Positions 1,568 to 61,473 of a stretch of DNA of 64,000 nt are shown piece after piece. The position numbers and the translations under genes are program-made. Numbering within the stretch: the first letter of the stretch is position 1; each line of letters opens with the position of its first letter. Under the pieces are notes generated by a model. The model did no database searches. It was not told where the DNA came from and saw only the letters and a list, made by a program, of their open reading frames with translations. The stretch lies in the NCBI RefSeq assembly GCF_050920415.1, contig NZ_CP169309.1; one strand, written 5' to 3'. The stretch is from Escherichia coli (GTDB taxonomy: Bacteria; Pseudomonadota; Gammaproteobacteria; Enterobacterales; Enterobacteriaceae).

Positions 1568-3478
1568 GTGACGGACGATTTTGCACCAGATGGTCAGCTG
1601 GCGAAAGCAATACCAGGCTTTAAGCCGCGAGAACCACAGCGACAGATGGCGGTAGCCGTCACCCAGGCGATAGAAAAAAGCCAGCCGCTGGTGGTGGAAG
1701 CCGGAACCGGTACGGGCAAAACCTACGCTTACCTGGCCCCTGCGCTGCGGGCGAAAAAGAAAGTCATTATCTCGACCGGCTCAAAAGCGTTGCAGGATCA
1801 GCTCTACAGCCGCGATTTGCCAACGGTCTCAAAGGCGTTGAAATACACGGGCAACGTGGCGTTGCTGAAAGGGCGCTCAAACTATCTCTGCCTCGAACGA
1901 CTGGAACAGCAGGCGCTGGCGGGCGGCGATTTGCCGGTACAAATCTTAAGCGATGTGATCCTGCTGCGCTCCTGGTCCAATCAGACGGTAGATGGCGATA
2001 TCAGCACCTGCGTCAGCGTGGCGGAAGATTCGCAGGCGTGGCCGTTGGTCACCAGCACCAACGACAACTGTCTTGGCAGCGATTGCCCGATGTATAAAGA
2101 TTGCTTTGTGGTTAAAGCACGCAAAAAAGCGATGGACGCCGATGTGGTGGTGGTAAACCATCATCTGTTTCTGGCGGATATGGTGGTGAAAGAGAGTGGA
2201 TTTGGCGAACTGATCCCGGAAGCTGACGTGATGATCTTCGACGAAGCCCACCAACTGCCTGACATTGCCAGCCAGTATTTTGGTCAGTCATTCTCCAGTC
2301 GACAACTGCTCGACCTGGCAAAAGACATCACCATCGCCTACCGCACCGAATTAAAAGACACCCAGCAGTTACAAAAGTGCGCCGACCGCCTTGCCCAGAG
2401 CGCGCAGGATTTTCGCCTTCAATTAGGTGAGCCAGGTTATCGTGGCAACCTGCGCGAACTGTTAGCTAATCCGCAAATTCAGCGAGCATTTTTACTGCTC
2501 GATGACACCCTGGAACTTTGTTATGACGTGGCGAAACTGTCGCTGGGGCGTTCCGCCTTGCTGGATGCGGCATTTGAGCGCGCCACGTTGTATCGTACGC
2601 GGCTGAAACGGCTAAAAGAGATCAATCAGCCGGGCTACAGCTACTGGTACGAATGCACTTCGCGCCATTTTACTCTGGCACTCACGCCGCTCAGCGTGGC
2701 GGATAAATTCAAAGAATTAATGGCGCTAAAACCAGGTAGCTGGATCTTTACCTCAGCAACGCTGTCGGTGAATGACGATCTGCATCATTTTACCTCGCGG
2801 CTTGGCATTGAACAGGCAGAGTCGTTGCTGTTACCCAGCCCGTTTGATTACAGCCGCCAGGCGTTACTCTGTGTGCCGCGCAACCTGCCGCAAACCAATC
2901 AACCGGGCTCCGCACGGCAACTGGCGGCAATGTTGCGACCGATCATCGAAGCTAACAACGGTCGTTGTTTTATGCTTTGTACCTCGCACGCCATGATGCG
3001 CGATCTGGCCGAGCAGTTCCGCGCTACCATGACGCTTCCCGTTTTGTTGCAGGGGGAAACCAGCAAAGGGCAACTGTTGCAGCAATTTGTCAGCGCCGGT
3101 AACGCGCTGCTTGTGGCAACCAGCAGCTTCTGGGAAGGGGTGGATGTGCGTGGCGATACATTGTCATTGGTGATTATCGACAAGTTGCCGTTTACCTCAC
3201 CGGATGATCCACTATTAAAAGCGCGCATGGAAGATTGCCGTTTGCGCGGAGGCGACCCGTTCGATGAAGTACAGCTGCCGGATGCGGTCATTACTCTCAA
3301 GCAGGGGGTAGGGCGACTGATTCGCGACGCCGACGATCGAGGGGTTTTGGTGATTTGCGACAATCGGCTGGTGATGCGCCCTTACGGCGCGACGTTTCTC
3401 GCCAGTCTGCCGCCAGCGCCGCGCACCCGTGACATTGCCCGTGCGGTTCGTTTCCTTGCGATACCATCCTCCAGGTAA
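1568..3478 (+). CDS. yoaA: DinG-family ATP-dependent DNA helicase YoaA (636 aa), GTG start
   Basis: ORF track; Walker A AGTGTGKT, DEAH box FDEAHQL, Cys cluster typical of Fe-S helicases. Confidence 0.9.
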   Translation: MTDDFAPDGQLAKAIPGFKPREPQRQMAVAVTQAIEKSQPLVVEAGTGTGKTYAYLAPALRAKKKVIISTGSKALQDQLYSRDLPTVSKALKYTGNVALLKGRSNYLCLERLEQQALAGGDLPVQILSDVILLRSWSNQTVDGDISTCVSVAEDSQAWPLVTSTNDNCLGSDCPMYKDCFVVKARKKAMDADVVVVNHHLFLADMVVKESGFGELIPEADVMIFDEAHQLPDIASQYFGQSFSSRQLLDLAKDITIAYRTELKDTQQLQKCADRLAQSAQDFRLQLGEPGYRGNLRELLANPQIQRAFLLLDDTLELCYDVAKLSLGRSALLDAAFERATLYRTRLKRLKEINQPGYSYWYECTSRHFTLALTPLSVADKFKELMALKPGSWIFTSATLSVNDDLHHFTSRLGIEQAESLLLPSPFDYSRQALLCVPRNLPQTNQPGSARQLAAMLRPIIEANNGRCFMLCTSHAMMRDLAEQFRATMTLPVLLQGETSKGQLLQQFVSAGNALLVATSSFWEGVDVRGDTLSLVIIDKLPFTSPDDPLLKARMEDCRLRGGDPFDEVQLPDAVITLKQGVGRLIRDADDRGVLVICDNRLVMRPYGATFLASLPPAPRTRDIARAVRFLAIPSSR

Positions 3479-3535
3479 TTTGTGATGGAGTATGGTATGA
3501 TGCGCGCCTTTTTATTGATCTAAGCACGAAGACCC

Positions 3536-4231
3536 ATGCGAATTCTGGCTATCGATACCGCGACAGAGGCCTGCTCTGTCGCCCTGTGGAACGACGGTAC
3601 TGTCAACGCTCATTTTGAGCTTTGCCCTCGTGAACATACTCAACGAATCTTACCGATGGTGCAGGATATCCTGACCACCAGCGGAACTTCCCTGACGGAC
3701 ATAAATGCTCTGGCTTACGGGCGCGGCCCCGGTAGCTTTACCGGCGTGCGCATTGGTATTGGCATTGCGCAAGGGCTGGCGCTTGGCGCGGAATTACCGA
3801 TGATTGGCGTCTCCACGCTAATGACGATGGCGCAAGGGGCGTGGCGCAAAAACGGCGCAACCCGCGTGCTGGCAGCCATTGACGCGCGAATGGGCGAAGT
3901 TTACTGGGCCGAATATCAGCGTGATGAAAATGGTATCTGGCACGGTGAAGAAACCGAAGCCGTACTCAAACCTGAACTCGTTCATGAACGGATGCAACAG
4001 CTTTCCGGCGAATGGGTGACGGTAGGGACGGGCTGGCAAGCCTGGCCGGATCTCGGTAAAGAGAACGGTTTGGCCCTGCGCGATGGCGAAGTGTTACTGC
4101 CCGCTGCAGAAGATATGCTGCCGATTGCTTGTCAGATGTTTGCCGAGGGTAAAACGGTGGCGGTGGAACATGCCGAACCGGTTTATTTACGTAACAACGT
4201 CGCATGGAAGAAACTTCCGGGCAAAGAATGA
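3536..4231 (+). CDS. tsaB: tRNA threonylcarbamoyladenosine biosynthesis protein TsaB (YeaZ)
   Basis: ORF track 231 aa; Kae1/YgjD-partner family; synteny. Confidence 0.9.
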
Positions 4232-29330: not shown

Positions 29331-29358
29331 AAAACAGGGCGTAACGCCCTGTTTTGCA
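29331..29358 (+). terminator. Rho-independent terminator of mipA
   Basis: ACAGGGCG-TAA-CGCCCTGT stem-loop followed by TTTTG. Confidence 0.75.
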
Positions 29359-31209: not shown

Positions 31210-31240
31210 AAAAAAAAGAGCGACCGAAGTCGCTCTTTTT
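31210..31240 (-). terminator. Rho-independent (bidirectional) terminator downstream of gapA
   Basis: A-run, GAGCGAC-CGAA-GTCGCTC stem-loop, T-run. Confidence 0.8.
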
Positions 31241-59098: not shown

Positions 59099-59802
59099 CA
59101 GGCATTCCTCTTCTGGCGTTCAAGCCATATTTTTTTCGCCATAAAAATCACCACGGTCAGGGCAAACAGAATAAACAGTCCGGTGACAAACCAGAAGGTA
59201 CCGCCCGTTAACATACTGCCCGCCCAGGAATAAACAATAGTCGCCGGTAACTGACCAAGCCCGGTGGCGATAAAAAACGAGCGAAAACGTATTGACGTCA
59301 AACCGGCAGCATAGCTGATTGGATCGAAAGGGACAAAAGGCAATAACCGGCATACCAGGATAGTGTGTTTGCCGTAGCGAGTGAAAAAGCCGTCCATACT
59401 GTCAAGCATGGTTTTACCGGTTAATTTTTCCACCACTTCGCGGCCCATTACTCTGGCGATAAAAAAGCATAGCGCCGCGCCCGCCATAGAACTGGTCCAC
59501 GACAGCAAGCCGCCCCAGAACGCGCCAAACAGCGACGCATTGGCAAAGGTGATCAAAAATGCAGGCAGCGGTGCAGCAATGGCCTGTAAGATCATTAAAA
59601 AGAATGAGACCAGTGCAGCCTGCGTGCCGTAAGACGCAATAAAGCGTTCAATGCCTTGTTGATCCACGGCGGCAAAGGCTACAAGGCTGCTGTTAATAAA
59701 CTCATAAACGCCGGGAATCAGCGCCCATGCGAGCAGCGCAACAATTAACAAGATGATAATGACGCCACGCCAGAGCCACATTTTACGGTTTTTATCTCTC
59801 AT
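59098..59802 (-). CDS. ydjZ: DedA/TVP38-family inner-membrane protein (YdjZ-like)
   Basis: ORF track 234 aa; stop overlaps ynjA start by 1 nt. Confidence 0.8.
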   Translation of the reverse strand: MRDKNRKMWLWRGVIIILLIVALLAWALIPGVYEFINSSLVAFAAVDQQGIERFIASYGTQAALVSFFLMILQAIAAPLPAFLITFANASLFGAFWGGLLSWTSSMAGAALCFFIARVMGREVVEKLTGKTMLDSMDGFFTRYGKHTILVCRLLPFVPFDPISYAAGLTSIRFRSFFIATGLGQLPATIVYSWAGSMLTGGTFWFVTGLFILFALTVVIFMAKKIWLERQKRNA

Positions 59803-59805
59803 CTT

Positions 59806-60510
59806 TCATCTTTGTTGTTCGGTTAAAGAGGTTTTATCAGAAGTGGTCAGTGCCACTTGTTTGTAACGGGCGTAGCATTTAGCAAGCTGAATAAGAATAA
59901 ACAGTATTAGCCCTGCCAGACAAAGTTTGAAAATAAATGATAATGTTATGCCTTCAGTAACAAGGTCGCTGGCCATAAAAGTATAAATAAAGATCCCCGG
60001 CAGAGTCGTGAATGCCGAAATAAAGGTATATGGCCAAAAGGCAATGGCGGTTAATCCGTAGGCGTAATTTTGAATATTGTAAGGAAATAGCGGAATTAAG
60101 CGGGTAAGAATAAGAAAATCGATACCGTTACGTGCAATCCCTTTCTCAATAGACTGAAAGACGGTGGTATCCCCAACATATTTCAGCACCAGTTCTCGCC
60201 CCATCCAGCGAGCAATCAAAAAGGAAACCGACGAAGCGAGCGTTGCTGCAACTAACGAAAGCAGAGTCCCCAAGAATGGACCAAAAATAATGCCACTGCC
60301 AATGACCAGGACACTACCGGGCAGCAGCAGAAGAGTGGCAATAACAAATAACAGAATATAAAGGCTGTAACCGAAAATACCACTCTGGCGAATAAGTGCC
60401 TGCAAGTGAGGAAGATCGCTAATGAAATTGAATATGCCTGAAGCATAAACAAGATAAATTGCCAGAGCAAAAGTCAGACTACCAACAACGAACTTACACT
60501 CAGCTTTCAT
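59806..60510 (-). CDS. ydjX: DedA/TVP38-family inner-membrane protein (YdjX-like)
   Basis: ORF track 234 aa; paralog of adjacent gene; stop 3 nt before ydjZ start. Confidence 0.75.
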   Translation of the reverse strand: MKAECKFVVGSLTFALAIYLVYASGIFNFISDLPHLQALIRQSGIFGYSLYILLFVIATLLLLPGSVLVIGSGIIFGPFLGTLLSLVAATLASSVSFLIARWMGRELVLKYVGDTTVFQSIEKGIARNGIDFLILTRLIPLFPYNIQNYAYGLTAIAFWPYTFISAFTTLPGIFIYTFMASDLVTEGITLSFIFKLCLAGLILFILIQLAKCYARYKQVALTTSDKTSLTEQQR

Positions 60511-60666
60511 CGTGGAGATTTCCTATATCAAGCCTTGATAATAGAGAAGTGAAAAACGCGATGACGGTATAACAAACCTAAGCTGGTCACAAATCCTTAC
60601 TGCCAGTTTCTTGATTATCCTCAAGAATCGGCCTCCTGACCTGGAGGATGTCAGGAGGCTGCGTCA

Positions 60667-61473
60667 TTAGCGGCGGAAGGTCGCCCACACAGGCGCGTGA
60701 TCGGACGGTTTTTCCATGCTGCGGATTTCATAGTCGATGCCGGTTTCTACGCAACAGTCTGCCAGCGGTTGGCTGGCGAGCAGCAGGTCGATACGCAGAC
60801 CACGGTTATCGTCAAAACCTTTTGAGCGGTAATCAAACCATGAGAAACGATCTGCTGTTTCCGGATTCGCATGGCGGAAGGTATCCACCAGCCCCCAACT
60901 TATCAGCCTGTCCATCCATTCACGTTCTTCAGGCAGGAAAGAACATTTACCAGTACGCAGCCAGCGTTTGCGGTTCTCTTCGCCAATGCCGATATCCAGG
61001 TCGGTGGGGCTGATATTCATATCGCCCATAATCAGCACCGGATTTTCACGCTTGAGTTCGGTTTCCAAATAATTTTGCAGATTCTGATAAAACTGCGCCT
61101 TCGCCGGGAATTTTATCGGATGGTCGCGGCTTTCACCCTGCGGGAAGTAACCGTTGATCACGGTGACATTGCCCAGCGGCGAGGGGATTTCCGCCATAAT
61201 AATTCGCCGCTGCGCCTCTTCGCCGTCGTCAGGGAAGCCGCGACGCACGGCAATCGGCGTCTCTTTGGTCAGCAGCGCCACGCCATAATGGCCTTTCTGC
61301 CCGTGATAAAACACGTTGTAGCCGAGCTTCGCCACCTCTTCGAGCGGAAACATATCGTCATGAACTTTTGTCTCCTGCAGGCCAATCACATCCGGTTGGT
61401 GCTTTTCGACGATGGCTTCAAGCTGGTGAGGTCTGGCGCGCAGGCCGTTGATATTAAAAGAGACAAATTTCAT
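60667..61473 (-). CDS. xthA: Exodeoxyribonuclease III (268 aa)
   Basis: ORF track 60667..61485; start trimmed to [14 protein letters not shown]. Confidence 0.95.

Follow-up and report, generated by a model that had tools for sequence, protein, structure and literature searches.

A pairing-conserved hairpin directly downstream of xthA in Escherichia coli, a candidate 3'-end element of the xthA mRNA

Does the palindrome that follows the stop codon of xthA in Escherichia coli act in RNA, at the end of the transcript in which it lies, or in DNA, as a site from which the next gene is regulated? The question is raised by a locus in the window, as the whole 64-kb stretch of DNA analysed here is called, where the gene of exodeoxyribonuclease III (xthA; 60667-61473, minus strand, placed by the list of open reading frames and the RefSeq annotation of MFDS1022581; stop codon TAA at 60669-60667) is followed after a spacer of 156 bp by a ydjX-like gene of the DedA/TVP38 family (59806-60510, minus strand), the first gene of an FNR-activated operon. 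The sequence of MFDS1022581 is 100% identical to that of the window over 60400-60800, and positions 3268-4074 of its locus (L001) correspond to 60667-61473. The order on the minus strand is xthA, ydjX-like, ydjZ, ynjA and ynjB, with astC divergent on the plus strand; ydjX, which the initial annotation had described as divergent or adjacent, is in tandem with xthA on the same strand. Read in transcript order, the spacer comprises the stop codon, 7 nt, the hairpin (60659-60631), 6 nt, the FNR box (60624-60611), a core promoter at about 60574-60566, an inferred start site near 60557 and, at 60510, the ATG of ydjX. It can be separated into three parts, an RNA hairpin, an FNR box and a core promoter.

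The palindrome, CCTCCTGAC-CTGGAGGAT-GTCAGGAGG at 60632-60658, was recovered with the letters and the coordinates first reported, and the perfect 9-bp stem attributed to it is real; addition of G60631 and C60659 extends it to 10 Watson-Crick pairs, seven of which are G-C, around a loop of 9 nt (hairpin 60631-60659, minus strand, delimited by sequence, folds and covariation in a 14-sequence alignment). In the xthA-sense RNA the order is UAA-UGACGCA-GCCUCCUGAC-AUCCUCCAG-GUCAGGAGGC-CGAUUCUUGAGG, the 5' arm occupying 60659-60650, the loop 60649-60641 and the 3' arm 60640-60631, all on the minus strand, so that the hairpin starts at the eighth nucleotide past the UAA. It is the minimum-energy structure of its own context, with a stem energy of -18.3 to -19.3 kcal/mol; in a context of 42 nt the minimum free energy is -19.3 kcal/mol (z = -3.2 against dinucleotide shuffles), and folding of 91 nt against shuffles gives z = -3.95. 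A perfect Shine-Dalgarno sequence, AGGAGG, is contained in the 3' arm (60632-60637, minus strand), and CCUCCU in the 5' arm. The earlier remark that no run of U adjoins the stem was confirmed: the tail CGAUUCUU, also given as CGAUUCUUGA, has four scattered U in 8 nt, the sequence 5' of the hairpin, UAAUGACGCAG, offers no upstream A tract, and a terminator scan demanding at least 5 U in the 8 nt after the stem returned 0 sites at the hairpin. That scan accepts loops of 3-8 nt, a range exceeded by the 9-nt loop found here; the K-12 variant of the hairpin can be folded with a 3-nt loop. The reference annotation of K-12 has neither a feature nor a repeat at this site, and the best scores of the hairpin in Rfam were 13.8-14.7 bits, against gathering thresholds of 38-74 (E 0.6-9).

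A palindrome of this size might have arisen by chance and be functionless, and about two perfect 9-bp hairpins are indeed expected per 64 kb. The window contains 16 perfect hairpins with stems of at least 9 bp, against 2.2 ± 1.5 in dinucleotide shuffles, which already speaks against chance; the class is strongly enriched, and a single member of it needs further support, which conservation gives. With up to three mismatches the hairpin pattern had one match in the window, against 0.00 expected, and its 141-nt context was found at one place per genome, by a search that would miss short copies. Membership of REP or another repeat family was rejected, the hairpin being single-copy in the window. 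The 15 other perfect hairpins of at least 9 bp, among them those at 29331-29355 and 31213-31240, belong to a class sevenfold above the shuffles; some have flanking runs of A and T (AAAACAGGGCG...CGCCCTGTTTT; AAAAAGAGCGAC...GTCGCTCTTTTT) and resemble bidirectional intrinsic terminators.

The support in question comes from an alignment of 14 Escherichia sequences spanning one junction, xthA-ydjX, and comprising the window, three other E. coli genomes of its haplotype, seven E. coli genomes of the common, K-12-type haplotype and representatives of three further lineages, E. albertii included. Around the hairpin the two E. coli haplotypes have diverged by about 25%. The stem cells of these 14 sequences are nevertheless paired in 96.2% of cases, a value that falls to 33-54% if the 3' partner is displaced by 1-3 columns. 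Compensatory double changes occur in four of the ten stem pairs (G-C/U-A, C-G/U-A, C-G/U-A and A-U/G-U/G-C), and the stem columns hold G·U and U·G intermediates, which pair solely on the xthA-sense strand. Almost every lineage has a loop sequence of its own (AUCCUCCAG, AUUCUCCCG, UCAAACUGG, ACAAACGGA, UCGCUCUGG, CCGCGCUGG and UCAUUGUAA), and the 8 nt past the hairpin contain 2-4 U in the other Escherichia variants. RNAalifold, unprompted, predicts the same 9-bp stem. Conservation of the palindrome, which the initial annotation had named as a check, is hence clear at the level of structure, being maintained by compensatory changes while the loop drifts. The K-12 hairpin folds with -18.7 kcal/mol on the sense strand and -10.5 kcal/mol on the antisense strand, and on account of this stronger sense fold and of the G·U pairs the hairpin is assigned to the xthA-sense RNA and not to a DNA palindrome. 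It is therefore an RNA structure of the xthA transcript, selected for pairing rather than for sequence. Compensatory evolution over two haplotypes and four Escherichia lineages leaves the chance reading with a probability close to negligible; covariation has effectively refuted it.

The two haplotypes deserve a description of their own. From about 59600 to 60666 the window carries a divergent haplotype block that includes the spacer, ydjX and the 5' end of ydjZ and from which ydjY is absent. The block is 62-86% identical to K-12, and its flanks are mostly at least 90% identical (84-100% per 100-nt block); it occurs in about 70 of 5,421 complete E. coli genomes, and strains MFDS1022581, N96 and 2017-02-2CC are carriers. 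The YdjX that it encodes is a divergent allele, with about 73% amino-acid identity to YdjX of K-12 and no closer to that of any sampled species. One boundary of the block coincides with the xthA stop codon and the hairpin, and the hairpin is kept in both haplotypes, its stem persisting despite an identity of 62-86% from the xthA stop through ydjX. In another strain, E. coli FXCREC145 (L092, locus about 255-410), an abrupt divergence sets in some 25 nt beyond the FNR box, and the annotation gives ydjX as a partial pseudogene without its N-terminus; the strain has undergone a deletion or rearrangement with its junction in the ydjX promoter region.

A second possibility put forward for the palindrome was that of a regulatory site for ydjX. 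In its concrete form this would be a DNA operator, the 9-9-9 palindrome being bound by a dimeric transcription factor that regulates the ydjX promoter. The FNR box of that promoter does lie 6 bp downstream of the hairpin, and a weak PdhR genomic-SELEX peak has been located in the xthA/ydjX spacer of K-12 (old coordinate 1831272; PMC7660256). The arms, however, vary while remaining complementary, a pattern typical of base pairing and not of base-specific protein contacts; the G·U and U·G pairs of K-12 and of the D7-type variant would be mismatches in a DNA palindrome; and both spacing and loop length change among the variants. The PdhR peak is pyruvate-sensitive, of low signal and without a PdhR box (PMC7660256), and a PdhR operator was rejected on those grounds. 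Its old coordinate falls on the K-12 hairpin, with the low resolution of the method. The FNR motif maps to 60611-60624 and is absent from the hairpin arms. A true operator is thus present next door, invariant where the hairpin is not, and an operator function of the hairpin itself is most unlikely; the regulatory site that had been proposed is the adjacent invariant FNR palindrome at 60611-60624.

This FNR box, TTGAGGATAATCAA, with half-sites TTGAG and ATCAA (60611-60624, minus strand), is assigned by its orthology to a ChIP-supported site of K-12, TTGAGAAAAATCAA, which is centred at -60.5 and accompanied by a ChIP peak of FNR (Myers et al. 2013, PMC3688515). The same study found the ydjXYZ-ynjABCD operon to be under FNR-dependent activation, with a sigma-70 occupancy at ydjX of 13.9 under aerobic and 1180 under anaerobic conditions (Myers et al. 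2013, PMC3688515). The TTGA and TCAA columns of the box are invariant in the 14-sequence Escherichia alignment, and the ATCAA half-site is retained in Citrobacter, Kluyvera, Pseudocitrobacter and Pluralibacter; the number of FNR motifs in the window, 6 against 3.3 expected, is not significant alone. A longer palindrome, TTCTTGAGGATAATCAAGAA at 60608-60627 (TTCTTGA-GGATAA-TCAAGAA), encloses the box and is likewise 6 bp from the hairpin. It was considered as a second RNA hairpin (UUCUUGA-GGAUAA-UCAAGAA) and reassigned to DNA, its four paired columns being invariant and the palindrome being the FNR site. Pairing of the loop AUCCUCCAG with the downstream CUUGAGGAU (inverted repeat I3), as a pseudoknot or an alternative fold, was rejected as chance, because it is lost with the loops of the K-12-type sequences, of E. 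albertii and of loci L003 and L055, and because the partner CUUGAGGAU is the FNR box. A UUG within the FNR box, 7 nt after AGGAGG, opens a frame of 33 codons (60624-60523, minus strand), open likewise in K-12 (24 codons) and in Citrobacter R56 (37 codons); as a gene it was discarded, the differences between haplotypes being mostly non-synonymous and the frame spanning the ydjX promoter.

The core promoter of ydjX is represented by a conserved block (60557-60574, minus strand) with TGTTATACC at 60574-60566; the block, TTTGTTATACCGTC, is conserved in all Escherichia and in Citrobacter, Kluyvera, Pseudocitrobacter and Pluralibacter, and no match to the sigma-70 consensus was found near the promoter on the minus strand. 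Counting 60.5 nt from the centre of the FNR box, 60617.5, would place the start site near 60557. In several of the same genera the beginning of ydjX itself is unusual. The ydjX of Citrobacter, Kluyvera, Pluralibacter and Pseudocitrobacter has no in-frame ATG, GTG or TTG at its conserved N-terminus (loci L006, L008 and L012-L015 at about 2476-2500; L034 at 2470; L017 at 2443; L010 at 2346; L081 at 2438), and a Shine-Dalgarno sequence and an ATG there open an out-of-frame mini-ORF (MKKKFA*, MQKKSVFHSL*, MPKKF* or MRKKC*). The 21 nt of the Citrobacter mini-ORF, ATG AAA AAG AAG TTC GCA TAA, are invariant in six species; relative to the mini-ORF, ydjX is read in frame +1 in some genera and -1 in others, and codons just past the stop of the mini-ORF show synonymous substitutions when read as ydjX (Arg CGA/AGA/CGG). 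Possible readings are programmed frameshifting on A-AAG-AAG, a shift at the stop like that of prfB, and an upstream ORF followed by non-canonical re-initiation.

The position occupied by the hairpin was also surveyed beyond Escherichia, at 80 species-representative Enterobacterales loci, the hairpins being counted over 81 sequences. What lies past the xthA stop is mostly non-homologous across the order, and the downstream gene varies. A hairpin of -12 kcal/mol or lower starting at most 28 nt past the stop is present in 52 of the 81 sequences, against 16-19 in shuffles, and one of -18 kcal/mol or lower in 23, against 1-4. Most of these hairpins are G+C-rich with 1-4 U in the next 8 nt, and a few, such as those of Pseudocitrobacter (GCUCCCUACGGGGAGC-GUUUCUUUU) and Photorhabdus, have proper U tracts. 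Folding energies favoured the sense strand at 37 loci and the antisense strand at 10, a comparison that is biased, the hairpins having been chosen on the sense strand, and that is not relied on. A hairpin at the 3' end of xthA thus recurs across the order and has been replaced many times over. Its recurrence directly past the stop codon is a further argument against chance, and the repeated replacement fits what is expected of a generic 3'-end element. At two loci REP-like elements stand directly past xthA, in a Pseudocitrobacter MAG (L010, about 2090-2230) and in Pseudescherichia vulneris (L033, about 2320-2350); their sequences are GCCTGATGCGCT..., GCCGGATAAGGCG... and GCCGGGTGGCGGCTACGCCTTACCCGGCCTAC.

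How the xthA transcript ends can be approached through K-12, from which all the experimental termination data come; over the hairpin and the spacer its identity to the window is about 75%. In K-12, Adams et al. (2021, PMC7815308) mapped a region of Rho-dependent termination that has its peak 193 nt inside ydjX, at 1833593 (+). Upstream and downstream reads numbered 163 and 20 without bicyclomycin and 89 and 82 with it, which corresponds to a Rho score of 7.5 for ydjX (p = 5e-15) in aerobic LB culture (Adams et al. 2021, PMC7815308); the score is computed over windows of 800 nt, and the point of termination is accordingly imprecise. The upstream reads are mostly xthA transcripts, because the ydjX promoter is essentially silent aerobically; transcripts initiated at that promoter could account for some of the bicyclomycin effect. 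By analogy, these data suggest that transcription of xthA in the window may also be ended by Rho, downstream of the hairpin. The C/G ratio of K-12 is 1.3-1.4 in the spacer and at least 2 in early ydjX, just upstream of the Rho peak. That of the window is 0.6-1.1 in the spacer and at most 1.5, the latter in a mildly C-over-G-rich stretch of the 5' part of ydjX (60389-60479, minus strand, C/G about 1.5), which would be a weak candidate for a Rho-loading region. The curated Term-seq list of Adams et al. (2021), which holds about 900-1,200 dominant ends per condition, some 23% of them gene-terminal, has no 3' end at the K-12 hairpin, over 1833100-1833699. The TERMITe supplements have no xthA entry, and a full-text literature search for xthA together with Term-seq or Rho-dependent termination returned nothing relevant.

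A known arrangement offers a frame for these observations. According to Dar & Sorek (2018), Rho-dependent transcripts of E. coli end precisely at stable stem-loops, which have neither U-rich tails nor upstream A tracts, are followed by a mild enrichment of C over G, and protect against PNPase and RNase II. Applied to xthA, an RNA polymerase leaving the gene would transcribe the hairpin mostly without stopping there, as the U tract is missing, and would enter the 5' part of ydjX after crossing the spacer of 156 bp, to be released there by Rho. The 3'-to-5' exonucleases PNPase and RNase II would then shorten the untranslated tail until they reached the base of the G+C-rich stem of 10 bp, leaving a defined and protected 3' end about 37 nt past the stop, at about 60631-60626, by which the xthA message would be stabilised. 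With modest confidence the hairpin can hence be regarded as the protective stem-loop that defines the 3' end of a Rho-terminated xthA mRNA. The structure is present, is under RNA-level selection on the xthA-sense strand and lacks a U tract; that it constitutes the steady-state 3' end and a barrier to exonucleases would follow from the comparison with K-12 and with this class. The first suggestion made for the palindrome, a Rho-dependent or structural 3'-end element, stands to this extent, agreeing with the conservation of pairing, with the missing U tract and with the bicyclomycin-sensitive termination downstream in K-12, and the regulatory-site alternative coupled to it does not.

The strongest competing reading is an intrinsic terminator of a weak or non-canonical type, at which some polymerases would stop at the tail CGAUUCUU, perhaps aided by NusA or NusG, with Rho mopping up the readthrough. 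The strong G+C-rich stem right behind xthA would suit it; the tail, with its 4 U in 8 nt and the 3-4 counted in its favour in other Escherichia variants, is not devoid of U, and hairpins at the same position in some genera (Pseudocitrobacter, Photorhabdus) do carry a proper U tract. Moreover, the read density of K-12 decreases 8-fold from xthA to ydjX without bicyclomycin, and part of this decrease could take place at the hairpin. On the other hand, bicyclomycin abolishes the drop in coverage of K-12 (89 against 82 reads), which an efficient terminator would forbid; the U-tract scan gave 0 sites, the loop of 9 nt is beyond the 3-8 nt range and an upstream A tract is missing; and the curated list of Adams et al. 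(2021) contains no dominant Term-seq end there. Such a terminator is possible and, on balance, rather unlikely. The missing U tract makes the hairpin a poor intrinsic terminator, and partial intrinsic termination is compatible with the protective 3'-end stem-loop preferred here.

Less probable again, and to be called improbable, is another role in RNA, exerted in the xthA 3' UTR or in a readthrough xthA-ydjX RNA, for instance in processing by RNase III or another enzyme, in binding of a 3'-UTR-binding protein such as ProQ or as a 5' stabiliser of a processed ydjX mRNA. Selection of structure rather than sequence on the sense strand would accord with it, and so would the readthrough RNA present in K-12 under Rho inhibition. 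Nothing specific points to such a role, however, Rfam giving no match (14-15 bits against 38-74), and the unconserved loop means that sequence-specific recognition of the loop is not expected; in other genera, unrelated hairpins stand at the same position whatever gene lies downstream.

Around the protective 3'-end stem-loop a wider arrangement can be imagined, in which it would make up half of a bipartite, condition-sensitive boundary separating xthA, expressed aerobically and in stationary phase, from the FNR-activated anaerobic ydjX operon; we hold this to be very improbable. The same low probability attaches to its corollary, that polymerases coming from xthA would routinely cross the FNR box and the ydjX promoter and be stopped by Rho inside ydjX. 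Were the boundary real, anaerobic induction and translation of ydjX would alter where, or whether, xthA transcripts end, and readthrough from xthA would alter FNR-dependent initiation. The stem is moreover a Shine-Dalgarno/anti-Shine-Dalgarno duplex (CCUCCU/AGGAGG), whose AGGAGG arm could be freed transiently by a ribosome terminating on xthA. The evidence neither supports nor contradicts this freeing or the bipartite boundary.

For xthA, a classic DNA-repair gene, the result is a defined element of the 3' UTR, with little significance beyond annotation. To the U-less stem-loops found at the ends of Rho-terminated mRNAs it would add one well-supported example, backed by covariation.

Compared with canonical intrinsic terminators, the hairpin shares the G+C-rich stem a few nucleotides past the stop, and some of its counterparts in other genera carry U tracts; it differs by its 4 scattered U in 8 nt, by the missing A tract, by its 9-nt loop and by the readthrough into ydjX that is seen in K-12 when Rho is inhibited. 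With REP elements it has in common that it is an extragenic palindrome at the 3' end of a gene and could block exonucleases, and genuine REP copies occupy the same spot past xthA in Pseudocitrobacter (L010) and Pseudescherichia (L033). Unlike these, the xthA hairpin is single-copy in the window, does not resemble the REP consensus and is unannotated as a repeat in K-12. The FNR box (TTGAT-N4-ATCAA) of ydjXYZ-ynjABCD (PMC3688515) is also a palindrome, situated in the same spacer and 6 bp away; it is nevertheless a separate element (60611-60624), invariant and non-covarying, and the hairpin has no match to the FNR motif. A lesson for the scanning of genomes can be taken from this pair of neighbouring palindromes, of which the covarying one belongs to RNA and the invariant one to a protein site. 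The stem-loops of Dar & Sorek (2018) are defined as a class by a precise, Rho-dependent steady-state 3' end at the base of the stem, trimmed by PNPase or RNase II and lengthened in exonuclease mutants, whereas the xthA hairpin is known from features of its sequence, and the C>G signal is weak in the window haplotype. With those stem-loops it shares a position directly past the gene, a stem of terminator-like size and energy with neither a U-rich tail nor an upstream A tract, and, through its K-12 orthologue, bicyclomycin-sensitive termination and a mild excess of C over G downstream.
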